Assembly: GCA_009602735.1 (NCBI GenBank)
Contig: WELA01002258.1
Coordinates: 713,546-752,061 of the forward strand
Reading direction: 5' to 3'
DNA length: 38,516 bases
DNA from: Mesotaenium endlicherianum
Taxonomy: Eukaryota
In this document: positions 1,160 to 37,389 of the stretch, piece after piece
Numbering within the stretch: the stretch's first letter is position 1
Layout: every line of letters starts with the position of its first letter
Notes under the pieces: model-generated
Told to the model about the DNA's origin: nothing
What the model saw: the letters and a program-made list of their open reading frames with translations, nothing else
Database searches by the model: none
Made by a program: the position numbers and the translations under genes

Positions 1160-2509
1160 AGGGTCCTAGTGTTAGATACACAAATAGATGCAATACTTTG
1201 TGACATGTACATTTTGTATCACACGTATGGAAAGAAACTTCAATTGACAAAAAGCCTACTTGTGGGATACTCGCGTGCTGGTTCGTGAGCGACAAATTAC
1301 ACATCGTATTTTGACATATTTTCAAAATACGCAAAATACGCGTCCCCACGAAGTAAAAATGAATCTTTGGCAATTTGATAATATAACAAAGGAATTTTTT
1401 AACTTTCACCACCTTCATGTCATAGTAAACTTTGTCCTCTACCATTTGCGACCAATCGCGCTTGAAGTTTTAAAGCACTTTTGAAAGTTGCAAGCCCTGC
1501 TAGTTTCTCCGAGAATTTTGGAAAAATGGATTACACACGTAATTCCTTTTTTACACGTATTATTGCAATAAGTATTTGTTTGACGTATCCTCCACATACG
1601 TACTCCATAACTGAGACAAAAAGTCAACATTGCTGACAGATAGACAATTCTAGATAAGTTTCCCAACGACTACACGCGTTGTCGCCCATTTAGGAGTCCT
1701 TGCTATGCGCTAATGAACGAATTATTTCTGATCCAAAAAGGACTACCAAGGTCCAACAAAAGTTTGAATTCATTCCTTATTTCCAATAATAACGTTTTCT
1801 GGACAAATTGTGTTATTTGCATTTTGTCATTTTTTCAATCTCATCAAGACAACAACGCTGGTGGAGGCGCTTTCCTATGAGCCACCATCCTTCCAGTGAA
1901 TGGAGTGAAGTTACAATTTGCTCTGCTAATCTCTCTCTGAATTTCTTCTTTGTCCTCTTAGACGCCTCTTGGGATGCCAATTATTACTCAAAGCCAGGAA
2001 TACCAGAATTACCTGATGCATAAGCTCTCGCAACCCAAGCCCACTTAAAAAATGGCAAACAAAAAGAAGATCCAGATCTTGCCATGCTCCCATTTGATCT
2101 CCTCTCAAATTTGCGCCATACAACAAGCCCATCATTAGGAGTCGATAGCAAACCAAGTCAAATTGCAACGTCTGCAAACTATTGTAGATGCCCACTGCCA
2201 AGTCTGTGGGATTGGCAGCGAAGTAGTACTGGCTAGTGGGGATCTTAGCTGCCGCATTAAAATCTTGTGGCTAACCAAAAGGAAAGGGCACTGCTTGAGC
2301 TAGAAAGAAGAAGCTTAAGAAAACTGTGGGTCTTGGTGTGAGATTTGCAGTTAATTGAGTAGCCTTTGGATGTCCAAGCGGGCCAGTCCATCTGCGTCTT
2401 AGCACAGCCAGTTCTAACGGCGTTCCCACAGTCGCACTAATCGCAAGAACATGAAGAATAGTGCTCCATGCCACTTGCCTAATATTTGCAACATTCATTG
2501 CTAGCCACA

Positions 2510-2665
2510 ATGCTCGCTAACCATCCCTACAAAACCAATGGTTCCATTCACCGCCGCGCTTCTATGCTGCTCTGTGACCGTTGCAACGCAGGTTGGCATT
2601 TGGCATGTTTATCTCCTCCATTGTCACGAGTTCCCGAGGGGGCTTGGTTCAGTCCCTCCTCCTAA
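2510..2665 (+). pseudogene. Decayed PHD finger, probably from a retroelement 3' end
   Basis: Frame from 2561 reads SMLLCDRCNAGWHLACLSPPLSRVPEGAWFSPSS*; outer Cys codons mutated; PPT-like GAGGGGGGA at 3232-3240. Confidence 0.75.
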
Positions 2666-17900: not shown

Positions 17901-19048
17901 CCCGGTGGCTACATTTTCACTGTTATCTAAAAAATTGCAGCTTGCTCTCCTGCTTCCTGCTGCCCTTGCCACTTCTTCTTTTTTTGGGGGGGGGGNNNNN
18001 NNNNNNNNNNNNNNNNNNNNNNNNNNNNNNNNNNNNNNNNNNNNNNNNNNNNNNNNNNNNNNNNNNNNNNNNNNNNNNNNNNNNNNNNNNNNNNNNNNNN
18101 NNNNNNNNNNNNNNNNNNNNNNNNNNNNNNNNNNNNNNNNNNNNNNNNNNNNNNNNNNNNNNNNNNNNNNNNNNNNNNCCCCCCCCCCCCAGCACCATCA
18201 ACAACACGTGCATGCATCCGGCCGCGCGCTCTTGATGAGGCACGCAGCCACGATGACAGGAGACTCCTGCTCATGCCGTGCACGCAGTGCTCGCAAGCAT
18301 GCATCCTTCTTGGATGTACTTCCAGGAGGGTGCTCATGGTGGCAAGTTCAAGAGCCCTCAAGTGCCACCGTGACCCCCATGCCACTCTCCCAACGATGAC
18401 ACCTGGCTCCGAGGACCTCCAGCTTCTCCTTTCTGCAGTCTAGGTGTGGCTGGACCACGCTGGACTACACCTGAGCAGATTGCATCAGCGGCAGAAACTT
18501 TGTCTGGCACGCTACGCTGCCCGAGTCTGTGAATGGGATGACACAGCTGGCAGCAGCAAGGCCCCATCCTTTCCTTTTCCCACGCCCTGCTGCCTTTGAA
18601 GCATGCCTTTCCATCGCCGGCCACTCCTCCCCGTCATGCGATGCCTCTACGGCCATTGCAACGCAAAGAGTGAGGGGTGCATGCAGCCCCACCCACTCAC
18701 AGCAGCTGGCGCTCTCCGGGGCTAACTCCCTCTCAGAGCAGGCTCCACGCGTCGCAGCTGGTCCGGCAATTCAACCCTCACAGGGTACCATCCCACGGTC
18801 AGGGGGAGATGGGCGTACCCAGAAGTAGCCAGGGGCAGCCACAGAGATGTTGTAGGAGCCCACGTAGTCCGTGGGGGCCCACTCGCGGGTGGTGGCATAC
18901 AGCAGGTTGTCCTGCAGCAGCAGCTGGGCTCCCGACGCCGTGCTGTTGGCTGGCAGGCCGCCGACATAGCTGCTGTCGGCCGCCCACGTGCGGTTAAAGT
19001 GGTCGACGAAGGCGGGACCGCCGCAGTTGATGCGGACCACTTCGCCAT
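4122..19048 (-). CDS. Multi-exon malectin-like receptor-like kinase (CrRLK1L-related RLK/Pelle): 5 tandem malectin-like pairs, TM helix, Ser/Thr kinase; 5' exon not located
   Basis: Manually spliced GT-AG exons: 19048-18819, 17798-17667, 17332-16928, 16642-16426, 15920-15682, 15504-15427, 15203-15069, 14887-14486, 13896-13689, 13441-13212, 12947-12870, 12643-12512, 12336-11905, 11708-11504, 11346-11102, 9628-9500, 9347-8931, 8706-8505, 8352-8117, 8017-7940, 7811-7680, 7457-7346, 7177-6891, 6524-6326, 6176-6042, 5905-5688, (gap)5614-5500, 5348-5188, 5058-4913, 4708-4615, 4493-4122(stop). Recurrent malectin motifs (R/H)INCGG, RLHFAE, GxRVxDIxIN, LDVV..VGP, xSAIE. Confidence 0.88.
6042..6176 (-). 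CDS. Transmembrane exon of the RLK
   Basis: [35 protein letters not shown]: hydrophobic helix followed by an RRR stop-transfer; flanked by AG/GT. Confidence 0.9.
   Translation of the reverse strand, partial: RRPRGSRPERLPAQLSERVCWRQCCCWRPLCGAAGATISRALWT
6326..8352 (-). CDS. Malectin-like pair 5 exons
   Basis: [75 protein letters not shown]. Confidence 0.85.
8505..11346 (-). CDS. Malectin-like pair 4 exons (interrupted by duplicated segment and gaps)
   Basis: VVRINCGG (11346-11102); VAGNFSF..ISAIE (9628-9500); ERYNIGG..VRLHFAE (9347-8931); [14 protein letters not shown] (8706-8505). Middle 78-bp exon not seen; N junctions at 9830 and 10885. Confidence 0.8.
9831..10884. repeat. Apparently identical copy of 8413-9466 (offset 1418), bounded by single Ns; probable assembly artefact
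   Basis: Identical ORF translations in both copies, introns also identical by eye; N at 9830 and 10885 next to poly-G runs. Confidence 0.85.
11008..11044. repeat. (CAG)n microsatellite in an RLK intron
   Basis: Direct inspection. Confidence 0.85.
11504..13441 (-). CDS. Malectin-like pair 3 exons
   Basis: [57 protein letters not shown]. Confidence 0.85.
13689..15920 (-). CDS. Malectin-like pair 2 exons
   Basis: [66 protein letters not shown]. Confidence 0.85.
16301..16368. repeat. Intronic (CTAGGGG)n heptamer array
   Basis: GGCTAGGGGCTAGGGGCTAGGGGCTAGAGGCTAGGGGCTAGAGG. Confidence 0.85.
16426..19048 (-). CDS. Malectin-like pair 1 exons
   Basis: [60 protein letters not shown]. The short middle exon is probably in N-gap 17996-18178. 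Confidence 0.8.
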
Positions 19049-21269
19049 CTGGACGTCACCTCCAATGCAAAATGCACGAACTGAGTGAAATGAGCGAACA
19101 GAGTTCTCGGCAGCATAATATCATTCTGGCAGCTGCTTTCAACCCCTGCCCAGTCAACGCTGCTCGACCAATCTCCAGAAATGCATATAAGTCTCCCTTC
19201 TACCTTTCCTTGCTTCCCCGTGATGACAAGCTTGACGACTGCGTGCGTCGGCAAACGCTTCCTGAAAAGCAGGCAGGCTGCTGCTCGTCGCTGCAAGCTG
19301 CTGTGGCGTGTGAGGACCCAGCACTCAATTGACATGCAGCGGAAGACAAGGAGGGGGAGGGGAGCATCTGTGCATGGGTTGACAGTGCACGCCACACGCA
19401 GCTTCCATTGCTGCCATAACCCGCCATACACAGCCTTGCAGTGTATTNATACACAGCCTTGCAGTGTATTTGAAACTCCTCATCAACTTCATCAATATAC
19501 AGAGTTGCATCCAATCAGGCATTACCAAGCCTGATGAAAATGTCAGACTGATTCTAACCTATAGCACAGCCGCATAGCGACTATCTGCCCCTGCTCCCAT
19601 ACCAATACATAAGTTCACTACACGTTTCTTGTTCGACTTGTCGGGTACAAGTCCCTCCTGCGCTCCGCTAAGAACCGAAGCCACATGTTCTCCAGTCAAC
19701 TCATTTCATCATTCAACTTGTTCAGTTTCTGTCGTGGCCCCTCTACTTGATGAAAGTATGTCGTCTATGCCCTTACCCTCTTTGACTCTACTCGCGTTTA
19801 TATCAGAACGCATTCTATAAGTATAACTACTCCACAAGCCAGCATAGCAGCTAGCGTAGACACACGTGCTCGTTTGAAATTCGTACTCATGTTCGGGTTA
19901 TTCAAAATGCGCACGCTCAGTCACATAGATGGCAGGTACAGAAGGGTGGAGTCGCTGAAGGCACTTCAAGTAAAGAGCCAGTTCTGCTTCAACTTCAAAC
20001 TCCCCTGCAGTTATGCAGCCAGTCGGGTACCGTAATACAGGCTTGCATATCTTGGGGAGGCAAACGTGCTTAAGAAGGAAAGCTTGCGAGAAGCTGAAAC
20101 TAAATTCATTCCTGAGGCAATTCTCCTTGTTTCGCTATAAGAAAGTGCTTTTTTATTTCCCGTAGCCTGTGCTCGACTGTTCAATGCGAACTACGAGAGC
20201 CTTGATATCACTCACATGCATTCTCAGCACCCACGCGTTTACCTGAACTCTCGCCATTAACGGCTACAAGCAGGACGATGAAAATCCAGTATAAGCATGC
20301 GAAGCGTCCGCGCTTCATAGGCCTCATGTTGGCAGATTACTTCATAGAATTTTCTTGTCAAGGCATCAATAGTAGAGGGGGCACGACTCTACGAGGCAAG
20401 GAGTTGAAACATAAGCTGACGAATGGCAATTTTCTGAATTTCACAATCGAGGATTGGAGCAGACTAGACCTGATGTCAATCACTAATTGCAGGCGCGTGA
20501 AGGCCCGAGCTCTTGACGACGTAGCCGACTTCGGAACTTGTACACGTGAGGCGACAACAGAGAGAAGTGGGAGTAACCAGGCCTGACAGGGACAGGTAAT
20601 TGGGTCGGACCCTTGAAATAGTCTCGAAAACGCCAAAGTTTGCAATTCGCTTGGACTCCCGGAGCGGCCACCAACCTCCGGAACAAACTTTTCTCGATTC
20701 GACCGGGAGACATTTTAACCGCAAATGTATCCGAGAGGCATCGTACCAAGATGGACGAGAAAATGCCAGAATGTGATGAAGCCCTGCCTGGCGTAATCAT
20801 GCAACTATGAGAGCACACTGGACAGAAGTACTCGAGCATAAGCGTGTATGCAACAAACGACACTCATCGACACGATTTGTACGCCTCTGCAAATCTGTAC
20901 CTTGAGATCACTTGAAAAGCTGACAATTTCGAGACTAAGCACGCGAGGTCACGGAATTTGAGAAGCAAATGACAAGACGACAAGGTCCAGAAATATATAA
21001 TCGAGGTGACGACAAACCAGGCGCTTGACTAACAGTTCGTCTTGACGTAGGGCATTGTCACATACAAGAATCAAGGCGGCAACCTCAGTCATTCATGAGT
21101 GCGACCGCGACGTGGACAAGGACCGCTGACAATTTTCACCGTAACCGCTTCTTGCCGTTAGACGCAACGTATCTAGTTCGAAACACTACTGCTCGGATTG
21201 GGCAAGAGCCTAAATAGAGTTATTTTCCTTTGAAGTGTCTTACATTATTTTGTTTGTCTTAGGGACTCA

Positions 21270-22509
21270 TGTGGCGACTATTATCCGTTTGACGGTGTCG
21301 CACGCGCAGCGCAAGCTACGGCCACCTAGTGCTGAAAGTCAACGTTGCCTCACCCACCACTTGACTGATTACATCGCAGTTACCGGTTATGGCGGCGTCA
21401 AGACCACTGGCAAGGGGTCAATGGCAAGGGGTCAATGCCAGTGTGCCCCACACCCAAGGATGGGGGAGGTTTTGACAAGACAGCCGCGAGGCTAGGAGCT
21501 GGGGATCAGCAATGAGCCGCCCAGCAAGTACCAGGTCAGGTACTGTGTGACTGGCAGATTAAGCCAGGTCATGGCTGCAATGCCAAGATAGGTTACGGCC
21601 GCCCGGTTGGGAAAACTTGAGCAAGCGGCATTTGCTTGCACGCCGCTCAGGAATTCTTAGCCATGAGCCAATTAGGCGTGACTGCCGGCTGAGAAGCTAA
21701 GCAGCCACGCGCGACAGTCACAAGGTGTGCATGCATGCTGAGTGACTACGAGTTTGAGTTGAGCAAGGCTGGGCAGAGGCGACATGCAGCTAAGTTGTGT
21801 GACTAAGCACGGCATTCTCGAAAGATGACGCTGTGTGGTGCCTGCGAAAGGCACGAATCTTGCCTGAGACATGTCATTCACTCTCACGCACCTTTGCCAA
21901 GAAGCAGAAGGAAAGAGAAGAAGGGCGCGAAAAAGAAGAAGGAGTTCCCAAGGCCATTGGAGGGCCAAAGCCCCACGCTTCTGACGACGCCGAAGATTCT
22001 TCTGTGTATCATAGATAAGTTAGGATTGTAGGAGTTCCCAAGAGGGAATCTCACGGTTGAAGAAGGAGAACTGCAGAATAGAATTTGCTAGGAGATTAGC
22101 ACAGAGTCAGCCGAACGCCACAAGTGTGTGTGTGAAGCAGCCTTAAAATGGTGAGTTGAGTGTTGATTTCCAAGTTCTCAGAAGTCGCATTCGCATCTCG
22201 AAGAGAGAGAGTAGTATTGACAGATAAAGCTCTCAGTGAAGAACTGAGTGAGCCCAGCCTGGCAGTGAAGAGCTGTTAAGGCGCGGTGTTAAGTGAAGAG
22301 CTTGACCCAGGGCAGCATAGACGTGGTTTCAGAGTTTTGTAAGCTGACTTGTGGAAGTTAAGCGAAAGCCCGAAGGGCAATTTTCTCAGAATCTGACGTT
22401 GCATGTCAAGCTGTTTAGAGTGTGATTTCTGCAAACTACAATTTGCTCACCTATGAACCCAAGAACCTTAAGGCATAAAGCCTATGTGGAAGTAAGAGAC
22501 TTTCGTCCT
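21270..22509 (+). repeat. Terminal repeat A (1240 bp), 5' copy
   Basis: Nearly identical to 31267-32492. The 14-bp length difference is explained by a tandem duplication GGCAAGGGGTCAAT at ~21409-21436. Confidence 0.93.
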
Positions 22510-22845
22510 ACTTCTGAGAATATCAGTTCCGTGGTTCAGGTGAATAGAAATTCCCAAGCAAATTGGGGATTGAGGCCTGTGAGGGCTGCCGGTGCTCAAC
22601 CTGGAAGGGGACCTGGAGAAATTCAACTGTACATGCAGTTGAGGAGTGGAAGACTCTACTACCCTGTGGAGCCTGCGAAAGTATCTGATTCAAGCCAAAG
22701 TCCACGAGAAAGTGAGACATCTGAGCACACGGATAACCTGTAGAGTGAGCAACCGTCGAGAGACGAGTCTCGCCATACTGCCACAAACAGTGAGAATCCG
22801 TATAACGCGCGAGCTTTTGTACCCAATTCGGGCAGAGAGCACGAC

Positions 22846-24328
22846 GTGTGGGATAAAGATAGTGAGTCTTGGTCACCACTCGAAATGACTGGTGATGATA
22901 AGGATGAAAATCCTAAGTTCAAGCTGTCTACAAAGTGTTTTAGTGGACGAACCAGTGGAAATAGTCTCACTTTCGAAGAGTTTGATGAGATCTATTGGGC
23001 TGACTTCTTTGAGAAAATCCGAAAGGATTCTTCTTACACTCAGTCTATCGCTTTTATAAGCTTGGTTCAGTACTTGGACAAGGATGCCTTGTTGCTGTAT
23101 TGCCAATTTCGGAAGGATGAGAACCTTACTCAGAAATGGGCGTTTGACGAGCAAAAGAAGGCGAGAGATTTGAAAATCCAGAATGAGGCTGCGAAAGCCC
23201 GCCTGTCCGCTTTGTCATCAGGAAGAGCGATACCTGCTGCACCTGTTGAGAGCGTAAACTTAGCTGCACCAACACAAGAATTAACAGATGCCATGAAGCA
23301 ACTCACCAAGGGTCAGCAGCGAGCGGCTACTCGAGATGATGATGCTGGATCTGTCATAGAATTGCGTAAAGTGTGTGCAGAATTGTCTGAAAAGATTGCT
23401 AATGCTCAGGAACGAGAAACACGCAGAGCTGCACCTTTTACAGGGCAGCATGGTGATAGTGCCACCACGGAAGCAGGCCATGCGCAAGCGTTGCCTAGTT
23501 GCCGTAGGGATATGGAGGCTGGAGATGACCAGTTAGACTCTTAGCACTGTCTGCGTCGTTTCTTTAAGTTGCTTGAAGCAAAATCCCCAGAGAATCGCAG
23601 TCTTAAAGTGCACCGTTATGTTCATTTTGTCCGTCAGAAGAACGACACAGTGATGGAGGTCAAATCCAGATTGGTAGACCTTGCCAAGAAGGCAAGAATC
23701 TATGAGCCTAGGATTGTGGCTGACAAATTCTTATTATGTCTGGGTAAAGACACAGATCGGGAGGTCAGGCCGCACCTATCTGCAAAACGCGGAATCGACT
23801 TGAACATCGACGAGGTTGCTGAAATAGCACGCAATGTCGAGGAAGGTAAAGTCTGGTACAAGGAGGCGTCCAGGACGCTTATGGCTCCTGAGAGAAGGGA
23901 GGAATCCTTTCAGCCTAAGGCCAATAGCTCTAATTTCCAGTTTAAAAAGAAGAGCGGGTCTTTCGATAAAATTTGCTAAGCACGCCAACACTGCTGAGAC
24001 AGCAGAGGGCTGTTGGAATTGCGGGAAATCGGGACATCAGAAGAGAGATTGTCCGTACCCGGATGCTAAGCAATTGTTTGCTAGCAAGGCGCAAGTATGC
24101 GCACATTGCAGTAAAAAGGGACACTCAGAAGATGAGTGTTGGTCCAAGAACCCAAATCTGAAACCACCATGGGCTAATGCTGCCACGAAAGAGGCGGATA
24201 AGGGTAAGAAAAGGGAGAAAGATAACTCTGGTAACCGGAAGGGTAACCAGAAGTATGATGCTATGAGTGCAGAGATTGCAGAGTTGAAAGCTAAATTTGC
24301 AAGACTAAATGTGCCTAATGTCTTATGA
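22846..24328 (+). pseudogene. gag: gag region with two CCHC zinc knuckles (stop at 23542, frameshift near 23970)
   Basis: RQKNDTVMEV..RL.DLA capsid-like motif; CWNCGKSGHQKRDC and CAHCSKKGHSEDEC. Confidence 0.85.
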
Positions 24329-24767
24329 TGCAGATGTGGCCGAAAAGACCATCTGCAAAGGCGAGAAGCTGACGCCTGAGAAGGCCGTGGCTGCAACGGC
24401 TGCGGAGCGCGCGGATCATGACCGTCTGGTTCCAAGGAATGCTGGGAAGCTTCCTTAGACCTTTCGGATCACTCTCGATGAGAACGAGATTGCGCAGCTA
24501 CAACAAGCCAAGCCTGGGCCACGCAAGACATTTAGTTTTTCGCTGGAAAAGCTAAAGGCTCTGGTGGAACACCGGATTCAGCACATTCCTTGTCTTTCAC
24601 TCGCTGATCTGCGTCTTACATATCCTTTCACGATTGAGGAAGCCGGACAGCAGCTGGACCTAGCTAAGGAAGGCGCGAACAGCGCTTCGCTGCCAACTAA
24701 TTTCAGCACTGTGAGAGAGCAGAACAAGGATAGAGTTATGACGTTTAACAACTAGGCCGCTCCCAAT

Positions 24768-25110
24768 ATCCTATTGGACACAGGCGCACAGCCAGTAATC
24801 TTGGGAAAGCGAGCTGTGAAAGCTCTGGGATTGACGGCAAGGGACCTGAAAGAAAGTTCTTTCCAGTTGAGGACTGCATCTGGGCAAATTTCAAAGTCTT
24901 GTGGAATCACCCGCAAGCCTGTGGAAATCACAGTAAACTTGGGGAAACCTGAGGAAGCGTCACTGTTATAGAGTGTACGGTGACAGAGTCAGAAAACTAT
25001 GATGTTCTATTGGGGACAGAAGCTCTGATTCCCCTGGGTATGGTCATTGACCTGCGGAAGCAGAGGGTGACTTACCAGTCGACAGATCGGCAGCCGACAG
25101 GAGAAATTCC
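24768..25110 (+). pseudogene. Retroviral-like aspartic protease (disrupted near 24970)
   Basis: ILLDTGAQPVILG active-site motif; downstream YDVLLGTEAL..LGMVIDL..RVT. Confidence 0.88.
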
Positions 25111-25420
25111 TGTAAAAATGGTTTGCTCGGGAGAAGCAAACTACGGACTGCTAGACTGCTATGTGAATGACCAGTATCCAGACCATTATGACCTCATCAT
25201 GCAACGCAAAGAGAAGATCTACACCAGCATCAACATGCCGACTCCCTTGGTTTGGCAACCTTGGATTATGGAGCAACTAGAAGCTGTGAGTAACAAGGAC
25301 CGTGGCCCGCAAGAGCTGCTGCCTGTTCCTTATCTAGTTAAGAGTGTTGCCAATTTGATGCCTGGAGTAGACCCATTGCCGCAAGGCACTGTGAGGATGG
25401 AAGATCCTTTTCGCAGGAGA

Positions 25421-26390
25421 GGAGTAGTAATGCTGGAATTGTTCGCCGGACTTTGTACTGGAACCATCGCACTGATTCAGCGAGGTATCCGGGTATCCAA
25501 AGTGCCGTATGTGGACAATGATGAGAATGTTTTTACAGCTCTTGAGGAGGTCATGAGTCAGATGCGGCAAATGTACCATTTCAAGGCATTGGTGCCCACT
25601 AGTGTGGTGCGTCTTGCTGAAGGAAACATTCTCGATGTGAAGTCTGAGGACCTGGATGGTTACAGGATTGACTGGATTTTTGCGAGAATCCCTTGTCAAC
25701 CTTTCTCGCAAGCTGGGAACAGGAGGGGATTCAATGACCCGCGAGCACAACATTGGGGAAGGATGGTGAAGATCATCAGTATGCTGCGGGAACGCCAGCA
25801 TCTCTACCCACAAGTGCTTGTGATTGAGAATGTACATCCAGGGATGGATTACAACCAGATGAAGCCAGGAGATCCATGGCTGGTCTTCGACTCCACCCTG
25901 GGTCATCATGTATTGATCAACGACGCCAGGCACGGAGGACTCTCACACCGGGCCCGACTATTCTGGACCAACGGCATGTCCATTGAAATCCTGAGGGAGA
26001 TGGAGGAGATTACGCGGCGCACGCCAACGACAGTATCTGTGGGAGAAGCACTGATGGTGGAAACCAAGCCAGTGATCAGGAGGGATTCCTACCCACAGTA
26101 CGTCGTCAACGAGCCAGGCCGGCCGAGGGTGGTGCTGCCCACCTTCACAGCATACTCAGGATCACGCGCTTTCGTGAATGGAGTGGAGGACCAGGATTGG
26201 TCAAAGATGTGCACGATAGAGAAGCTCAGTGGAGAGAGCCGACAGCTGAAGAGAAGGGAAGGTGCCTGGGGGTACTCAACTCCATTGCACAAGAAATTTT
26301 TGCAATGGTGGGACAGGACAACGCTGGGAAGATATTCGGCAATATGATTGGGCATCACTCCATGACAGGGTTGGTAGAGACGATTATGAC
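25421..26390 (+). pseudogene. C5 cytosine DNA methyltransferase domain (DNMT3-like) within the retrotransposon polyprotein; one frameshift near 26183
   Basis: Motif I LELFAGLCTG (25433-25462); motif IV IPCQPFSQAG (catalytic Cys 25694-25696); motif VI VIENV (25820-25834); motif VIII HRARLFWTN (25946-25972; compare DNMT3 HRARYFWGN). After the frameshift, motif IX-like WREPTAEEKGRCLG (26230-26271) and motif X-like KIFGN (26329-26343). Confidence 0.9.
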
Positions 26391-28176
26391 TTGGCAACAG
26401 ATGATGTTCTCTGACAAGCCTATGCCCAGGCCGAGGCCGGTAACAATTGGAGTCCATGTGGTGCCAACCTCTGATCAGAGAGCTATCAGGGAAGCGTATC
26501 AGCAACAAAAAGAATATGCTGTTGAAAGAGACTTCGCTGAGGCTGACCAAGATGAAACACTCAGAGAAACCAGAGTGGTGGATCTGACCAGGTATCAAGA
26601 CCTATTGACGCGAATTGACAATCGGATGGCGACTCTACGCGACCCTCTGGAAATAGAGCAATGGAGGCTGCAAGAAGAAGTAACCATGGAAGACCAAGCA
26701 ACTGGTGCAGCAAACCCTTTGGTGAGCGCTGCAGTAAGCAAATCACAGGAGGTTCCAGCATCTGCAGAACGCTCCAGCCAAGTATTTAGGAGGATGTCGG
26801 AATGGGAAGAATATACCAGTTCTGAGTTACGAAACATGGCCCCAGACCAGGTCTTCGGGAGCCCATCCCCAGACGCGGTAACATCAAGATATGAAGAACG
26901 CCAGTGCAATATTGGCGAATGGGCCGAAGAACGCAGTCAGAATTCAGGAAATTCTGGAGGGTCTGGAAAGACCATTTGCCTGGAGGTGATTTTTGAAGAA
27001 CACAAGAAGGAGACAGCCAAGAGATTGCCCGCCACACTTGCTCTGATGAGCCCAGGGCCAGAGGCCAAAGGGCAACCACAAGACACAGTTGGCAACACAG
27101 CTGAGTCGATCACCAGGCAAATCATGGCGCAGTTGCTGGAAGCAGACGCCCCTCGACTCAAGGAAGAGAAAGTGGCGAAAGCAGCTCTCGCTCTACAGTC
27201 AGCCATCATCAACATGGCGAGGCTCAACACAGGAGGGGATGAAGAATTACCGCCTCCTAGAACAGAGAAGCCGGAGGAGGAAGAGGATGCAAAGATGCAA
27301 GGCCTCTCGGAGTTGGAGTCACCATCACTCAACAATGAAGGGGACATTAGGGAAGAAATTCCACGTTTTCCCACGCCAGAGTTGGATCTGCTTGACTTAC
27401 AAGAGCTGAGGACAGACGACTGGGTGGCTGACCACCTGATGGGGCCAAGCCCGGCAGACCTTTATGAAGAATTAAGGTCGCCAACATCCAGTTTTCCTTT
27501 TGCCAGTCTTCCAGTGGTAGAATCCAAGTCAACCGCACAACCGCCGCAACGGCAGGAGGTGACTGCCTGCACTGCTAATGTGGAGACAGCACAAGCAAAG
27601 CCCGAAAGTCGCGCAAGCAGACCAAGGAAGGTGGCCCGTGAGGGTAACGCATCTTTTAGGAGGATACTAAAGCAATATTTCAAGCATAAGGGGAAGGCTC
27701 AGAGAGAGGGCGTTTCGCGAAGAACCACAGCTCCACCTCCTCCGCCTCTGCGGGATATTCTGCAGAGAGAGGGAGAGGACGGTTTGGTTTGCAGGGTAAT
27801 GGCATTGGGCATTAGTGTGCCGCCAGGCATGAACACGCCCTCGTTGCAACTATCAGATCTTAGGATACAGAGGTCGGAGGAGCCTGCTCCTATGATACCT
27901 GCAATCCCAGGATCGGAACTGATGGATCTGAGAAACACCATCAGCCGCTTGACCGCAGCAGATGATGCCTTTCTCGCACAACTAGCGGCACCTCAAAGGC
28001 CGCAAACATTGGCGCAGGCATGGATGGTCACACCACCCGCAAGGGAGGAGTATGGCACGACCGTCGTCCGCATGGCTATTATTGAGCGAGAATGGGGCTG
28101 GGCGATCAGCCCTAGGACAGATCCAGCAGGTTTTCCAATGGCAACCCAACCTCAGTGCATGGGGCTCCCACAGTAG
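26391..28176 (+). CDS. Long stop-free polyprotein segment of unknown function (acidic/Pro-rich) between DNMT and RT
   Basis: Part of the 659-aa ORF 26197-28176; no domain I recognise. Confidence 0.55.
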
Positions 28177-28900
28177 TAGTCGCTAAAAAGGACGAGGCCG
28201 GCAATTACTCTGCCACTCGTATGTGTGGAGATTACAGGCGACTGAATCTCTACACGGAGCCAGATAGCTATGTGATGCCTACACCGGAAAGGATCTTTGC
28301 AATTGCCACCACCGGAAAGGTGTTTAGCATTATCGATATGCGCCAAGGCTTCAACCAGATCCCTGTGAAAACAGAAGGTCGAGGTAAGACAGCTTTCTGG
28401 GCTCAAAGGGAACTTTGGCAATGGACAGTAATGCCATTTGGACTGAAAAATGCCCCAGCCATATTTCAGAGGACTATGGATAAAGTGCTGGAGGGGCTGG
28501 ATTTTGCTAAGCCATACATTGACGATGTGGTAGTATTCAGCAAGTCCATAGAGGAGCACCTCGAGCACTTGGAACAAGTGTTCCAGCGCTTGGAGAAATT
28601 CCAGATGAAGCTGCATCCCGGGAAGTGCAGATTCTTTGAGGCACACGTGCCTTACCTAGGACATGAGATTGGGAACAATGCTTTGTCCCCTCATGCTGTG
28701 AAGACTGAGGCTATTTAAAAGATACCTGCACCTGCGAATGTGTCGAAGCTAAAAGCTCTGTTAGGGCTAAGCGGATACTATCGTAGGTTTGTGAAGGATT
28801 ATAGCAGAATTGCTAAACCCGTGACGAAACTCCTGAAAAAGGATGTACCTTTTGTGAGGACAGAAGCTCAGGAGAAAGCCATGAACGAGCTTAAGGAGCG
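28155..28900 (+). pseudogene. pol: Reverse transcriptase (gypsy-type), premature TAA at 28716
   Basis: VVVAKKD..RMCGDYRRLN, IDMRQGFNQI, MPFGLKNAPAIFQR, YIDD (28515-28526), KCRF..VPYLGH, LGLSGYYRRFV. Confidence 0.95.
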
Positions 28901-29310
28901 GCTGGTAACAGCCCTAGTCTTGCGAACGCCTGACTACTCCAAGCCGTTCAATCTGCACACTGACTGGAGTCGTGTGGGAATTGGCGCAGTACTCACTCAG
29001 GCCACAAGCCCTACAGAGGAGTATGTCATTGCCTATGCCTCACGCTCTAACAATCGAGCGGAGAGCAACTACTCGTCCTATGAAGGAGAGCTGCTGGCAG
29101 TGGTTTGGACGGTCACACACTTCAGAGAGTATCTGTGGGGAAGACCCTTCACACTGATCACGGATCACTCACCATTACTATGGCTGATGAAGAATGGAGA
29201 CCTCACTAGTAAGTTGGCTCGCTGGGCTCTTAAGCTGCAAGAGTACCAAATGACGGTGGTGCACAGAGCAGGAGTGCTCAACAACGAAGCCGATGGACCC
29301 AGCAGGAACC
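28901..29310 (+). pseudogene. RNase H (Ty3/gypsy type)
   Basis: FNLHTDWSRVGIGAVL, IAYASR, EGELLAVVW, FTLITDHSPL, RWALKLQEY, NNEADGPSR. Confidence 0.93.
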
Positions 29311-29612: not shown

Positions 29613-30700
29613 GTGCCAGAACCCATCAAGAGACGAGCCCTTGTGCAGGAAATGCACGAGAACACTGGACACTATGGTGTCAAGAAGACATATAGTCTTT
29701 TGGAGCTGTCTTACTGGTGGAGGGGCATGAAGCAGCAGTATGAAGATGTGATCAAGGCCTGCCAAAGCTGTGATCGCGTCAAGGGTGGTTTTACACAGCA
29801 ACATCCACACTTGCAACCTTTGCCAATCATGGGCCTAGGCTACCGTTGGAGCTGCGATCTCGCAGGTGAGCTACCGCTGTCTAAGCGAGGTAACAAGTAT
29901 ATCATGGTCATGATTGAGCATTTCTCTAAGTGGATAGAGGTTGTCCCTCTGACTGCTAAGGAGAGTCTAGGGACCGCGGAAACGTTCCTCAATGGTGTGA
30001 TTGTGCGTCATTATGCTCCAGCAGAAGTGCTGACAGACCAAGGGTCTGAGTTCCAAGGGTCTTTTCAGAAACTCTTGGATAGATGCTTCATCGATCATCG
30101 CACTACGTCTAGAGATCATCCACAAGCAGATGGTCTAGCAGAAAGGATGGTGCAAACCATTAAGTCTGCTTTGTGCATGTTTTGCCTTGAGCATGACAAG
30201 CGTGACTGGGATCTAGCCCTGCCATGGCTGGTTATGGGTTACAGATTAGCAAGCAGGCTGCCTTGGCAAATTACTCACCATATCAGATACTGTTTGGCAG
30301 AAGTCCAGTAGTGCCCAGCAGCATCAAGCAGGAGATTGAACAGGTGAAAGACCTGGACAGCCTTGATGAACTGTTAAAAGTGATGGTGCGCCGTAAGGCG
30401 TTATTTGAGCGCATGATACCGGCTGCACTAGACAATCTGAAAATTGCACAGAAAAGAGATATGCAACATTACGCCAGGACGCGAGACGGGAGCTACCGCC
30501 TGCAGATGACGCGGATTCAAGAAGGAGACTTTGTCTACCGCAAGCGCTAGACCAAGACCACCATCGACACCAGTTCAGGTGCAGTGATCTTGCGCGTGAA
30601 ACATGCGTTTGACAATGGTGTGTTAAAACTGGAAGGTTCTGATGGTAAAACCATGAGAGACCACGTGCAGAATTGCTCGCTATGCCATTTGCCGAATATT
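29613..30700 (+). pseudogene. DDE integrase with HHCC zinc finger and C-terminal extension (frameshift ~30245, stop 30548)
   Basis: H..GHYG..C(QS)C; WSCDLAG; VLTDQG; HPQADGLAERMVQTIK; SPYQILFGR; GDFVY. Confidence 0.93.
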
Positions 30701-30748
30701 GATCCCACAGTTAGGGTTGTGCCCGAGGAATTGGTGCCGGCCACGCCT

Positions 30749-30877
30749 TGTGCCAGCTGCAAAGTGCTGGACGATCAGGAAGCAATGGTAACTTGCGATA
30801 AGTGTGGTGCCTGTTGGCACACTTTCTGCATTGGCGAGGAAGAAATTATGGCAGGACGATGGGAATGTCCTGATTGC
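30749..30877 (+). CDS. PHD finger (C4HC3) at the integrase C-terminus
   Basis: CASCKVLDDQEAMVTCDKCGACWHTFCIGEEEIMAGRWECPDC; all 8 zinc ligands and the conserved Trp are present; polyprotein stop at 30911-30913. Confidence 0.92.
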
Positions 30878-30948
30878 CATCCTAAAACCCCTAGCCGCAG
30901 GGCTGGAAAATAATAGCTTTCAGCAGGAAAGGCAGGGACGCCTCAGCT

Positions 30949-30960
30949 GAAAGGGAGGGG
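30949..30960 (+). promoter_or_regulatory. Polypurine tract
   Basis: GAAAGGGAGGGG immediately before TGTT at 30961. Confidence 0.85.
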
Positions 30961-31264
30961 TGTTAGAGGAATTAAGGCAAGGCAAGTATTTTTAAATTTT
31001 CTGCTGAAAGTCTTAGGATAAGCAGATGGTGAGAGCCGGGTGATAGAGAACGTCACCTTGAGTGTTGGTCAAGGCTATATGGTGCAAGTTCAGGAACCCA
31101 GGGATAGGTTAACCCTGGTAAGGCTTGTCACCGACACACGTGCAAAGGTCGATCGACCATGTCTGCCACACGTGAGGAGGGCCACCAACACATCAACCAG
31201 GCCGAAGGCACACGTGCTGGAAGGCTACGCACGTGCCGAGAAACCGACACTGTTAGGCACAACA
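30961..31264 (+). repeat. Repeat B (304 bp, TGTT...AACA, LTR-like), first copy
   Basis: Follows the PPT; inverted termini; nearly identical to 32493-32796. Confidence 0.92.
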
Positions 31265-31266
31265 GC

Positions 31267-32492
31267 TGTCGCGACTATTATCCGTTTGACGGTGTTGCAC
31301 GCGCAGCGCAAGCTACGGCCACCTAGTGCTGAAAGTCAACGTTGACTCACCGACCACTTGACTGATTACATCGCAGTTAGCGGTTATGGCGGCGTCAAGA
31401 CCACTGGCAAGGGGTCAATGTCAGTGTGCCCCACACCCAGGGATGGGGGAGATTTTGACAAGACAACCGCGAGGCTAGGAGCTGGGGATCAGCAATGAGC
31501 CGCCCAGCAAGTACCAGGTCAGGTACTGTGTGACTGGCAGATTAAGCCAGGTCATGGCTGCAATGCCAAGATAGGTTACGGCCGCCCGGTTGGGAAAACT
31601 TGAGCAAGTGGCATTTGCTTGCACGCCGCTCAGGAATTCTTAGCCATGAGCCAATTAGGCGTGACTGCCAGCTGAGAAGCTAAGCAGCCACGCGCGACAG
31701 TCACAAGGTGTGCATGCATGCTGAGTGACTACGAGTTTGAGTTGAGCATGGCTAGGCAGAGGCGACATGCAGCTAAGTTGTGTGACTAAGCACGGCATTC
31801 TCGAAAGATGACGCTGTGTGGTGCCTGCGAAAGGCACGAATCTTGCCTGAGACATGTCATTCACTCTCACGCACCTTTGCCAAGAAGCAGAAGGAAAGAG
31901 AAGAAGGGCGCGAAAAAGAAGAAGGAGTTCCCAAGGCCATTGGAGGGCCAAAGCCCCACGCTTCTGACGACGCCGAAGATTCTTCTGTGTATCATAGATA
32001 AGTTAGGATTGTAGGAGTTCCCAAGAGGGAATCTCACGGTTGAAGAAGGAGAACTGCAGAATAGAATTTGCTAGGAGATTAGCACAGAGTCAGCCGAACG
32101 CCACAAGTGTGTGTGTGAAGCAGCCTTAAAATGGTGAGTTGAGTGTTGATTTCCAAGTTCTCAGAAGTCGCATTCGCATCTCGAAGAGAGAGAGTAGTAT
32201 TGACAGATAAAGCTCTCAGTGAAGAACTGAGTGAGCCCAGCCTGGCAGTGAAGAGCTGTTAAGGCGCGGTGTTATGTGAAGAGCTTGATTCAGGCCAGCA
32301 TAGACGTGGTTTCAGAGTTTTGTAAGCTGACTTGTGGAAGTTAAGCGAAAGCCCGAAGGGCAATTTTCTCTGAATCTGACGTTGCATGTCAAGCTGTTTA
32401 GAGTGTGATTTCTGCTAACTACGATTTGCTCACCTGTGAATCCAAGAACCTTAAGGCATAAAGCCTATGTGGAAGTAAGAGACTTCCATCCT
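31267..32492 (+). repeat. Repeat A' (1226 bp), second copy of 21270-22509
   Basis: Direct alignment by eye from TGTCGCGACTATTATCCG to GAGACTTCCATCCT. Confidence 0.93.
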
Positions 32493-32796
32493 TGTAAGAG
32501 GAATCAAGGCAAGGCAAGTATTTTCAAATTTTCTGCTAAAAGTCTTAGGATAAGCAGATGGTGAGAGCCGGGTGATAGAGAACGTCACCCTGAGTGTTGG
32601 TCAAGGCTGTATGGTGCAAGTTCAGGAACCCAGGGATGGGTTAACCCTGGTAAGGCTTGTCACCGACACACGTGCAAAGGTCGATCGACCATGTCTGCCA
32701 CACGTGAGGAGGGCCACCGACACATCAACCAGGCCGAAGGCACACGTGCTGGAAGGCTACGCACGTGCCGAGGGACCGACACTGTTAGGCACAACA
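32493..32796 (+). repeat. Repeat B' (304 bp), right terminus of the element
   Basis: TGTAAGAGGAATC...TAGGCACAACA followed by CTCA. Confidence 0.92.
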
Positions 32797-33319
32797 CTCA
32801 TTGTTGCACGTTTAACAATTGAACAATGAGAGAGTTGTTAGCGTGCTTTTCAAATAGCCATGATGAATTTCTTGCATGTAACCCTGAAAATGTGCATTTC
32901 ACGAAACAGTGTGCTTCAGTCCCCCAGCATAGTTCTTTGTGGTGGCGTGCGTCAAATCCCCGCCCCCGTTGTCCACGTGAGTTCGACCCCACATTCTCTG
33001 CAGGCAGCAGGCCTTTATTGAGGTGTGGGTGGAGGACGCTGCCACCTGTCCCATTGAGGAGGTCTCTGTGGCGCTCTTCTAGGGAGGGGCACCTGTCGCA
33101 GTGGAGAAGAAGGAGGCTGACGCATTGTATGACCTAAAGAAGTTGGAGAGGGAGCTGGCGGGCGTGGAGCATTGCCAACCTGGCGGGGCTGCAGGAGCGC
33201 CTCTCGGTCGTCAACCCGTTCAACCTCCTTATACATGAGTTAACTGATTGCATGACTGATGCACGTTCACTCGCATTTGACTTATGAGTATTGGAACGCT
33301 AGTTGTGAAGTCTTTTGCT

Positions 33320-35215
33320 GATTATTAGGTAATCAAAAAACCCCATAAGATTACTTGATGACGTAAAATCTTTTAACAATTGTTAATCGTCTATCGATAA
33401 GTCAATTCATTTCAGTGGTATTGGAGTTGGTGTCTTAGATTCCTTTGTATGGTAAGGACGCGGTCTCAAAATAGCAACTCTTGAGATATGGAGGGTCAAG
33501 ATAACGAGAAGAGGGAAATTCTAGGTGAAAATGAAGATGATAAATGTTGTACTTATGCTGAAGTTCTTGCGCCTAAAGAGGCTAGAGAAGCCGAGGAAAC
33601 GGCGACGGCCTTTGTTGTAGTAGCAGCTTAGCAAGTTGAAAAATATCTCATTAGAACAGAGGCCGAATGTTTGGCTAAAGCAGAGGACGAGGCAGCTGCT
33701 GAAAAGCGGCGTCTGGGTGACAACAGCACGGTTGAAGAGATGATGGCAGAAAGGGCCACTCTCCAAAACGAGCTTCCTGATGGAGCTACTACTGTACCTT
33801 TCACCCTGGAGCTACTACTGTACCTTTCACCCAGATAAATAGACAGTTAAGCGAGACAGGACTTGCTAATGCAGCAGCAAGAGGAAATGCCAAATCTGTT
33901 GCTAAGCAATTGAATGCTGCTGCTGCTGCTATTGGTGGATTGCAACCTCAGAATGTTGATTTGGGTGCATTGTTCGTTCAAATGCAGTCTCAGATGACAA
34001 TGATGTATCAATCCCAACTGGAGGATTAGAGGATTATGATAGCATTGTTGCGTAAGACAGACCAACCGGGGTCTCACACTACTGGTGGTGGCAGGGGGCC
34101 TAGCAAGCTCAAGCCAAAGTCACCTCAAGACTATGACCCCGAGGGAAACAAAAAGTATTCCTTGACAAAGTTTCTCGGTGATGTTGAGCAGTGGCTGGAG
34201 AATTATCCAAACATGCAAGATTTTGGAATATTTAGACACACCGGTGCTCTACTGAAAGACAGCACAGCAGACTGGTGGCTACTCTACAAAGGAGAACGGA
34301 AGGCTAAACAACTCGATGACCCTACATGGGAAGAGTTCCGTTGAGCAATTGCACAAGAAATTTGATGTCATCAATCAGATGGAAAAAGCTATCTCTGCAA
34401 TGATCTCCTTGTCACTGGAGCAAATTACTTCAGTTGGTGAGTATGCACAGAAGTTCCAAGAAAATATGATGAAGAAACCTGCATTGTCACAGCTATCTAG
34501 AATTGCATACTTCCAGTTTGGCTTGAAGTCTGAGATCTCGAGTCATTTTGCTAAGAAGAAGTATGATAAGCTGGCTCACTTGATCCAAAATATTGATGCT
34601 TGGGATCAACGGGGATTCAACTATAACTTGGCACCCACCAGTGTCGCTCCTTGTGTCCTGTATGGATGGCAAATGAAGGAAAAAGAAAGGCTTCGAGGAA
34701 GATGCAAGTTGCTGAATACAATGGAGTTCGTCTAAAGCTGGAACCTCAAGGAAGATATAATGTTCTGTTTGTTGCTCAAAGAGTTCCCTCCTCAACCTGA
34801 GGAAAGAGTAAGCGCTCCGGAGCACCCCACCGCCGCGATAATTGTTGCTCAGTATGATGGTGTTTTTAACATGCCCCCAAGACTGCCCCCTAAGAGGGAG
34901 GTAGATCATAAGATTGATCTGGTACCCGGAGGCAGCCTCCTTGGCAGCGTACGCATGGCTTGTTCTATGTGGAGATTGAGGAGTCAAAAACACGAATTCT
35001 AAAAGTTCAGGAGAAGAGTCACATATCTCCTAGTATGTCCCCTTATGGCGCACCCATTCTACTTGTTCAGAAAAAGGATGGCAGTATGCGTATGTGTATG
35101 GACTACAAACCTAAAATTAGAATCACGTTAAAAAAATTGATGTGCTTTACCTAGGATTGAGGATCTGCTTGATACAGTGTCTAGAGCTAAAGTGTTAAAT
35201 AAAATTGACCTTGAT
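33320..35215 (+). mobile_element. Degenerate, truncated Ty3/gypsy element: LTR 3' end, decayed Met PBS, gag, start of RT
   Basis: ..ATTCATTTCA (33414) + TGGTATTGGAG; gag-like FLGDVEQW..TADWW..PTWEEF; LPPKREVDHKIDLVPG, SPYGAPILLVQKKDGSMRMCMDY, LPRIEDLLDTVSRAKVLNKIDL. Confidence 0.85.
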
Positions 35216-35629
35216 ACTAGATAGCTCGAAGGTCCCTATATGGACCAACTGTCACTTTCTGGACCAACTACTTGGCCCTCTAGTATGTGCTCGGAATTTC
35301 TTACTACTTATTTGTTTTTTGTGAAATTATTCTCAAACGATAGCTTATGTCGCAAGGATCTGGCATTAAATCAAGAGGTCAAAACAACCAAGTATGGGGC
35401 CGGGGAGGTGAAACGGGCCAATTCGAAATTTTAGTTTCTTCGAACAGAAGGTCCTCTTTCGCGATTGAAACTGATGTCTTTTTCTTGCAGTTCTTTGCTA
35501 ACTTCCGCCATGGCCGATGTAGAAAGCTCGCGCGACTCTCTTTTAGGGGCTAGGATACTAGTTTTGACTGTAACCTTTGGCCATACGTAAGCGTAAGATA
35601 AATTTGGAGATAATTGTGAGGAGTTTTAC

Positions 35630-36375
35630 TTGTCGAGAGATGTGATAAAGACAGGTGAGGGTAAAAGAGGGCAAGAGCACCATTATGTTGTCTTCTTTGC
35701 TTTTGACAAGACTAAACCAAAGTACACTCAAGCGTTGGCTGAATCAAACCTTAGAGATGATGAAGATGAATTTGAAGAGGTTAATTTGGGCATTTACAAG
35801 AGGAAAACAGTAGCTTCTTAACCAAATTCACAACCGGATTTTTTGGAGTTGTTCAGAGAGTCACAAAGAGCTATTCTCGACACACAATTAGTGATGAACA
35901 GCAGGTTACACCTTCTAGCATGCTAGAGAGTCAAACCGGGTCTGAGAGAGAGACCTTCAAGAAAAACAATATTGTAGCTCTTGTACAGAGGAATAAGTTC
36001 ATGTCTGATGCTTTTAGAGCTAGCAGGAAAGAGAAGGGCAAGCAGGTACAGTTAGACTCTGATGATGAAGAAGTTGGTGGTTGAAGCTCTAATGGAGAGA
36101 GCTCGGAGGAGGAGGATCTGCCAATAGCTGCAAGCTTGGAGGAGGTGGAGGAGGAGGAGCAAGAAGATTCCGAAGATGAAGATGTGCCACCTGTCTAGGA
36201 CTGGCAACCTGCTGCTCCTAAAGAGACCTATAACGAGGTCCTACTAAAGACAAGTAAGAAACAACACCACGAATTGCAGAGAATCTCTGACAGGAGATTC
36301 AAGGCCTTGTCTCCCCTTGGAGTCTTTTGCCTGCTCATGCCAATCTGGTTCTTTGAGCAGCTTGTAGTAGAGACT
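35630..36375 (+). pseudogene. piggyBac-like transposase N-terminal fragment
   Basis: Acidic D/E-rich stretch followed by SPLGVFCLLMPIWFFEQLVVET (36310-36375), resembling the start of the piggyBac transposase domain (xPxxxFxLxxxxxxxxxIVxETN); cut by the LTR at 36375. Confidence 0.55.
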
Positions 36376-37094
36376 GTAATGAATCAGTATATTAGTAGAT
36401 ATAATGTTCATTTAAATATAATAGTTAATTGAGTTCAGCCTGCTGAACTCTAGTTAATAATCGGTCTGCTGAACTTTATATTTAATAGCAATTTAATGAC
36501 TCAGCCGGAAGCAGCAGGCTGAAGTCAACTTAAGTCAGCTTGCTGACACATTCTTTGACAGCCGGTTGACTTCCGTACTTGGTAGCAGCGAATTGCCTCG
36601 ATATGCATCAAAGTGTGATATGCTAGATGAATGGCCAGATGACATCCCTATGATGGATGGCGATTTGGGATGATGGGAGATGGCGGTGGATTTGGTTAAC
36701 CGAGGTCCTACCAACGTGGTTAACTCCCGGGTAGGCGGTGCCATCGCATTGGCCGTTGAACAGCAATCTCATTCCATGTACATATGCTAGGCATTGCTCT
36801 CGAGTTGGGCATTCGGAAACGAGGCCAACTCTCTTGTACAGCATACTAAGAGAGATCTGAATTCAAGGCGAGAAGCTATTGATACAGACTGTCTTCTAGC
36901 CTTGCTTATGTATGAGTTTACTGATTGCATTATTGATGCTAGTTTACTCGCATTTGACTCACGAGTATTATTCACTGCTAGTGTGTTGTCCTTTGCCGTT
37001 TAACCAATTAACGGAAAATACCATAAAGATTACTTGCTGATGTAAAGATCTTTATTTATTGTTAATCGCCTGTTTGGTAAGGCGATTCATTTCA
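36375..37094 (+). repeat. 5' LTR (720 bp) of a gypsy-like element
   Basis: TGTAATGAATC...GATTCATTTCA terminal inverted repeat (10/11 match); 3' part is similar to 33340-33414. Confidence 0.85.
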
Positions 37095-37095
37095 A

Positions 37096-37107
37096 TGGTA
37101 TCAGAGC
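37096..37107 (+). promoter_or_regulatory. tRNA-iMet primer binding site
   Basis: TGGTATCAGAGC one base after the LTR-terminal CA. Confidence 0.92.
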
Positions 37108-37168
37108 AGTTATCACAGTCTTCTTTGTATGGTAAGGACAAGGTCTCAAACTAGCAACTCCCGGAGAC

Positions 37169-37389
37169 ATGGAGAATCAGGATAACGAGAATGTCAAAAA
37201 CCAGGCGGAAAGTCATGTAGCGGGAACCCGTACCTATTCTGAAGCAGTGGCAGATACTGCAGCTAGGGAGGCTGCAGATGAGGCAGCTGCTATTGCCACA
37301 GTCGCAGCACAGCAAGCTGAGGAGGAGAGAGCCAGATTAGAAGCTGAACAATTAGCAAAGGCCGCTGAAGATACAGAAAGGAGGGAAGT
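37169..37389 (+). pseudogene. 5' fragment of gag (MENQDNE..., related to MEGQDNE at 33488), truncated by a nested LTR
   Basis: ATG shortly after the PBS; leader similar to 33440-33500. Confidence 0.7.

Follow-up and report, generated by a model that had tools for sequence, protein, structure and literature searches.

A PHD finger behind the integrase of a decayed Gypsy-DNMT3 retrotransposon from Mesotaenium endlicherianum, and its relation to the element's methyltransferase

A PHD finger at positions 30749–30877 is confirmed as the last Pol domain of a decayed Ty3/Gypsy retrotransposon of about 11.5 kb, of the Gypsy-DNMT3 (KnitGypsy-Dnmt3) kind. The element lies in the window, by which is meant the whole stretch of 38,516 nucleotides of Mesotaenium endlicherianum DNA that was analysed. 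In intact relatives the finger is carried in one open reading frame (ORF) with the integrase. The reading we favour, at a probability of about 0.6, is that the finger would tether the integration complex to nucleosomes bearing unmodified histone H3, and that the DNA methyltransferase (DNMT) of the element would be a separate module methylating new element DNA. Finger and DNMT are best read as two co-inherited, independent modules, not as a coupled reader-writer.

The element and its PHD finger

The components follow one another in the order gag, protease, DNMT3-like methylase, linker, reverse transcriptase (RT), RNase H, integrase and PHD finger, within repeats arranged A-coding-B-A-B. Features are given below with their strand and the evidence for each.

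21266..21269 (left) and 32797–32800 (right), no strand: 4-bp target-site duplication, identical 4 bases at both ends
21270..22509 (+): terminal repeat A1, starts TG; 96.9% identity to A2 over 1240 bp
22516..24330 (+), start approximate: gag, interrupted by stops and a frameshift; Pfam zf-CCHC 2.2e-6, translation
24765..25087 (+): aspartic protease, broken; Pfam gag-asp_proteas 3.8e-6, custom HMM, two frames
25415..26340 (+), end approximate: DNMT3-like C5 cytosine methyltransferase domain; Pfam PF00145 5.6e-14, tblastn of relatives, two frames
26341..28148 (+): long low-complexity linker in open frame, without Pfam match
28170..29294 (+): RT and RNase H with a single stop at 28716–28718; Pfam RVT_1 1.7e-30, RT_RNaseH 2.1e-37
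29622..30245 (+): integrase zinc-binding and core domains; Pfam Integrase_H2C2 2e-16, rve 9.5e-12
30245..30712 (+): integrase C-terminal domain with small beta-barrel; custom HMM 189 bits, strands at model residues 15–38
30749..30877 (+): C4HC3 PHD finger, last Pol domain, frame ending at 30913; Pfam, PDB, ligand, AlphaFold and Foldseek evidence
30949..30960 (+): polypurine tract directly 5' of B1; sequence
30961..31264 (+): repeat B1, TG...CA; 96.7% identity to B2
31265..32492 (+): 2-nt spacer and repeat A2 (A2 = 31267–32492); self-comparison
32493..32796 (+): terminal repeat B2, ends CA; self-comparison

Two features of Gypsy-DNMT3 elements are present: the protease-RT-RNase H-integrase order with a DNMT in Pol, and the A-coding-B-A-B repeats. 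The DNMT3-like label is tentative and rests on homology to the Klebsormidium nitens domain and on the PDB matches of an intact relative, whose best are DRM and DNMT3A; the window DNMT's own best PDB matches are HaeIII and DNMT2, with weak E-values. This domain keeps motifs I, IV (the catalytic Cys), VI and VIII, with a frameshift near 26185 ahead of the last motifs. Gag retains a zinc knuckle near 24008–24055. The start of RT has probably been deleted at the right end of the linker, as suggested by two runs with loose ends at 28149 and by tblastn matches that begin at 28131–28152. The integrase C-terminal domain has a frameshift at its start (near 30245) and a stop at 30548–30550, which together sever the finger from the integrase core in this copy. 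Because of these two lesions and the DNMT frameshift, the window copy is dead. An RNA run labelled as the same species yielded 45 matching reads from 6.9 million records, none at 99% identity and none over integrase or PHD, at very thin coverage. CpG depletion over the element is about that of the rest of the window and is uninformative on self-methylation.

The joint between B1 and A2 (31255–31280) consists of the right end, 2 nt and the left end. Joints of the same kind occur in six relatives, and exact 4-bp target duplications were found in four of the six examined. Repeats, joint and 4-bp duplications are conserved family-wide (L019, L025, L051, L055, L077, L079). The window also holds a second, older relic of the same family, a broken integrase tail with PHD at 2424–2656 (+), and another decayed LTR element at 33228–37191 (repeats 33228–33510 and 36905–37191, 76% identity) with an RT fragment near 34930–35260. 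A host gene with repeated malectin-like exons occupies about 6400–19100 (-). The segments 8413–9466 and 9831–10884 are 100% identical and lie next to single Ns, a possible assembly duplication.

The finger begins 12 codons past the integrase C-terminal domain, in a shared frame. Its eight zinc ligands are spaced Cys-x2-Cys-x11-Cys-x2-Cys-x4-His-x2-Cys-x12-Cys-x2-Cys, with codons starting at 30749, 30758, 30794, 30803, 30818, 30827, 30866 and 30875. Membership in the PHD family (PF00628) is indicated by the Cys4-His-Cys3 ligands and the PHD fold, both of which are present. The Pfam search that a preliminary description of this DNA had proposed gave PF00628 at E 9.9e-6 and 25.9 bits, over the cut-off of 24. 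All 31 PDB sequence matches at E<=0.01 are named PHD-finger proteins; WSTF (3.2e-7) leads, followed by KMT2C, KDM5B-PHD1, Lid and KDM5A-PHD1. The AlphaFold model of 30551–30910 (mean pLDDT 81.7, 33 sequences) consists of a small beta-barrel and then a PHD finger, which Foldseek superposes on solved PHD fingers at an rmsd of 2–3 Å. A Pfam search of the window proteins found no chromodomain. On this evidence the preliminary description was right to see an intact C4HC3 finger at the place where chromoviruses carry a chromodomain. Chance spacing of Cys residues was rejected as the source of the pattern. A host PHD gene beside the element was likewise rejected, since the finger lies inside the element's repeats and downstream of the integrase in relatives. 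Chromovirus identity was rejected on the missing chromodomain match. Identity with an ADD domain was rejected as well: this C4HC3 PHD is of the ordinary kind and has no ADD profile match, and the ADD family is absent among the six Pfam matches of the window proteins at E<=0.1.

The finger in relatives and its predicted histone ligand

A HMMER search of 1.84 billion representative proteins, with a query that included the finger, returned 928 relatives at E<=0.001. Of the best 150, 146 have the finger behind the integrase C-terminal domain in a single ORF (134 when a strict pattern is required), which bears out in intact relatives the integrase fusion claimed at the outset. Among longer proteins, word matching with the PHD frame of 120 residues gave no hit, whereas HMMER did. 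The window's full domain order is found in one frame in six relatives picked by their RT (P0224, P0230, P0233, P0238, P0244, P0245). The stop at 30548–30550, between integrase and finger, is private to the window copy: other sequence stands at its place in 45,999 of a depth of 46,176 in run X1, and throughout the depth of X5, X6 and X13. Run X1 contains many copies of the element family, and its depth is about equal over finger and integrase. The closest named protein, with 88% identity across 85 residues, carries the gene-model label jgi/Mesen1, which we take to stand for Mesotaenium endlicherianum and which makes a zygnematophyte alga the likely host.

The PHD finger of KDM5B binds H3 Ala1 via P347, G349 and W351, Arg2 via D328 and Lys4 via D308 (PMC4225485), and readers of H3K4me3 require an aromatic cage (10.1101/715474). 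Among 167 family fingers the equivalent of D328 is kept in 156, of W351 in 158, of P347 in 141 and of G349 in 133; no other non-ligand positions of the family are conserved as well as these residues of the Ala1/Arg2 pocket. A Trp at the second position ahead of the zinc His occurs in 0/202 family fingers and an aromatic residue before Cys1 in 4/202. These two positions are presumably those of the H3K4me3 cage, and a cage of the ING/BPTF/TAF3 type is absent from the family fingers on these counts. An acidic residue within five residues before Cys1 is present in 138/202 relatives and missing from the window copy. The window finger keeps the Asp after Cys3, the Gly and the Trp; Met replaces the conserved Pro, and the loop is shorter. 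Since it is not ADD-like and has no H3K4me3 cage, the finger likely reads unmodified H3, as a candidate of the KDM5-PHD1 or BAZ type.

Sequence variants were considered at 40 of 67 places. Eleven fall in the finger, 0 in ligand codons and 6 synonymous. A synonymous excess is not significant in the finger alone (transitions at 6/40 versus 4/89 sites, p 0.07) and is significant in the integrase tail (p 0.0008); finger and tail do not differ (p 0.71).

Inheritance and separability of finger and methyltransferase

Because the HMMER query contained the PHD finger, three further sampling routes were used for co-occurrence. (a) Proteins were picked by RT-RNase H; of the best 120 of 2,833, 44 belong to this lineage, and 25 of these are uncallable on one side. 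In 19 both a DNMT and the whole integrase tail are present; these comprise 13 with a PHD finger, five without and one with a degenerate Cys/His stretch. (b) Of 76 proteins picked by their DNMT, 36 end before the integrase does. The remaining 40 span the whole integrase, and of these 35 have the finger, three lack it, one is degenerate and one is frame-broken; five of the 40 are also in sample (a). (c) Metagenome loci, the best 80 of 435, were ranked with a PHD-bearing query, and 39 were uncallable. Both domains are present in 40/41 callable loci, several of which are one insertion assembled twice, and the exception has a finger and lost its DNMT via internal deletion. PHD and DNMT are thus usually inherited together, across a large old family.

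Each domain has nevertheless been lost without the other. A PHD-less clade (SH-aLRT 99) consists of two Closterium proteins, P0234, P0242 and P0246, and sits among PHD-bearing relatives; its members have a complete integrase and an intact-looking DNMT with the Cys, EN and RxR motifs kept. In the opposite direction, P0094 is an open ORF of 2,435 residues with a finger and no DNMT, sister to the DNMT-bearing P0096 (support 97). P0251 and P0295 combine a PHD finger with no more than a worn DNMT, and the finger of P0213 is degenerate. The expectation in the preliminary description that the two domains would accompany one another across the family therefore stands as the usual state, and the independent occurrence that it had named as evidence against its reading is found in part, in the PHD-less clade and P0094. 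Exceptions amount to about one loss in each direction, which a functional PHD-DNMT link would likewise permit; co-occurrence itself is explained by common descent. Trees were quick IQ-TREE and FastTree reconstructions, with 12 outgroups in one and six in the other and the rest left out; same-cluster duplicates were excluded, as were proteins in which the RT domain was incomplete or present more than once. Deep branches lack support, that of the window included, and in both trees the window forms a branch separate from K. nitens P0366.

The two domains are also far apart. In 8/8 intact relatives of the window's order, 1,051–1,278 residues lie between DNMT and finger, a span that includes RT and RNase H. 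A complex prediction for DNMT and PHD of the intact relative P0224, in which alignments were not used, scored 0.00 and speaks neither for nor against contact. In 11/48 listed RT frames, from several subfamilies, a stop followed by a Gln codon occupies a fixed place between DNMT and RT, 124–132 codons upstream of the RT motif (L001, L002, L003, L005, L012, L030, L067, L068, and L008, L073, L076). Twenty-four DNMT-picked proteins end without RT, and 15/16 of the ends inspected fall at the matching place, as do the ends of Marchantia Gag-protease-DNMT proteins; the window element has no such stop. We take the stop and Gln codon to resemble a read-through signal, and the arrangement looks like programmed read-through placed past protease and DNMT instead of at the gag/pol border. 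With a read-through stop at this place, DNMT would outnumber integrase-PHD. A literature search for read-through downstream of protease and DNMT found nothing.

A different order prevails elsewhere in the lineage. The DNMT lies directly 5' of the integrase in 30/39 relatives that span RNase H to PHD, at a distance of 132–184 residues in the three measured. Relatives with the DNMT between RNase H and integrase form a clade (SH-aLRT 99; P0297, P0271, P0136, P0081, P0390 and others) with a named member in Scenedesmus sp. PABB004. Where the two adjoin, a joint protein is possible and coupling would be easier. Many members of this clade have a small barrel behind the finger, with one weak Tudor match, plus a further domain with weak adenine-methylase matches (E 0.03–0.2 in 3/10). 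The added C-terminal part is present in 21/34 PHD-bearing proteins of this order in the DNMT-picked set. In P0286, an unrelated Gypsy Pol, a Dam domain precedes RT and a PHD finger lies between RNase H and integrase; this is a separate capture of reader and writer.

The preliminary description had proposed a coupled module after the example of animal DNMT3A/B, in which an ADD domain adjoins the catalytic domain. Here the finger would recruit or activate the element's DNMT at H3K4-unmethylated chromatin, a reading that we consider improbable. Its attractions are the pairing of the domains in samples (b) and (c), the predicted preference for H3K4me0, which we take to be that of ADD too, and the adjoining position of DNMT and integrase in one large clade. 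ADD-like coupling was not borne out, however. No ADD profile matches the finger, which is of the usual C4HC3 PHD type; more than 1,000 residues and two enzymatic domains separate it from the DNMT in the window's order, and in some subfamilies the fixed in-frame stop separates them as well. The PHD-less clade retains its DNMT motifs, and descent explains the co-occurrence. Algal DNMT3s have been described without companion domains (PMC12344493). We also judge it unlikely that a functional finger has a ligand different from the H3 tail, be it DNA, the tail of H4 or a chromatin protein of the host, or that its role is to keep the integrase stable. Some extended PHD fingers do bind H4 (10.1101/715474), the top Foldseek matches include regions of PHF1 and MTF2 solved on DNA (with a high whole-query rmsd), and the window copy is without the N-terminal acid; the strong conservation of the Ala1/Arg2 pocket speaks against this alternative. 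That the finger of the window's subfamily is a fading passenger, still folded and no longer steering integration, has little probability either. It would account for the low score of the window finger (25.9 bits versus 29–50 in 25 relatives), for its lost family residues, and for the loss of the finger in a sister clade and its degeneration in P0213. The untouched ligand codons among the listed variants, the synonymous share, which is alike in finger and integrase C-terminal domain, and the high copy number with even depth in run X1 argue the other way.

A bolder account, which we regard as doubtful, is that this Gypsy lineage rebuilt the logic of animal DNMT3. The integrase PHD would pick H3K4-unmethylated chromatin, and the element's own DNMT would methylate the arriving copy. 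The lineage would be an ancient one of green algae and early land plants, with the DNMT held in the same integration complex. One branch would have the DNMT beside the integrase and would extend the protein past the finger with a Tudor-like barrel plus an adenine-methylase-like domain.

Under the preferred reading of two independent modules, transposition would proceed as follows. (i) Cleavage of Pol by the protease would release DNMT and integrase-PHD as two distinct proteins. (ii) The finger would bind the free N-terminus of H3 together with Arg2, and H3K4me3 would repel it. (iii) Integrase-PHD would bias insertion away from active H3K4me3 promoters, as chromodomains do for chromoviruses, and the finger would likely steer insertion toward inactive chromatin; the single insertion site of the window element is uninformative on such targeting. 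(iv) The DNMT would methylate the cDNA or the fresh insertion. Reader and writer go well together, and this may account for their joint retention; neither requires the other.

Relation to known systems

A Klebsormidium Gypsy element whose Pol contains a DNMT3-like domain and whose repeats are DIRS-like has already been described as KnitGypsy-Dnmt3 (K. nitens; 'Gypsy-DNMT3' of streptophytes; PMC5890265), and the window element resembles it in both respects. The K. nitens protein KFL_009030040 (P0366) shares the protease-DNMT-RT-RNase H-integrase order, with homologous DNMT and integrase tail. It is partial and ends inside the integrase tail, before any PHD would start. The main text and supplements examined of PMC5890265 contain 0 occurrences of PHD, and Fig. 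4c may show one. No activity of the Klebsormidium DNMT domain was seen in yeast; the authors consider this inconclusive and pose the role of DNMTs in retrotransposons as an open question (PMC5890265). The literature search yielded no text naming PHD and DNMT3 in one Gypsy element, though figures or supplements may show the pair; the family-wide pairing seems not to have been spelled out in print. The known range of Gypsy-DNMT3, so far Klebsormidium, is extended here by named proteins of Closterium, Marchantia and Scenedesmus, the last a chlorophyte. The lineage offers natural controls: its subfamilies differ in the presence of the PHD, in where the DNMT lies (two positions) and in whether a stop separates DNMT from RT. 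A comparison of insertion sites and of methylation on new copies would separate histone-guided integration from self-methylation.

Chlamydomonas reportedly carries a PHD-bearing Gypsy element, REM1. PHD fingers in retrotransposons have been called widespread (PMC6673714; 10.1101/2021.11.30.470311). Gypsy-7a_cRei of Chlamydomonas is like the window element in having a PHD finger in its Gypsy Gag-Pol, which has been proposed to limit harmful insertions; its intergenic insertion is 2.6 times over chance (PMC9940879). Unlike in the window, the figure legend lists the PHD before the integrase, and in the text consulted no DNMT is named for the element.

The idea of reader plus writer has itself been published for chromodomain elements. 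EpiLTRs/DAM-LTRs are LTR elements that, like the window element, combine DNA methyltransferases with a histone reader (10.64898/2026.05.21.726589). They differ in that the reader is a chromodomain and the DNMT is sister to DNMT4 and accompanied by a DAM, and no PHD domain is named in the text of that report. Searches of the window with Pfam and a custom HMM found neither chromodomain nor DAM. Chromoviruses likewise carry a reader at the integrase C-terminus (PMC3605345). Theirs is a chromodomain, whereas the PHD finger of the window is another reader fold with another predicted mark. Animal DNMT3A/B share with the window element a related catalytic domain and a reader, predicted here, that prefers unmethylated H3K4; they differ in that the window element has an ordinary PHD finger, placed on the integrase and far from the DNMT.
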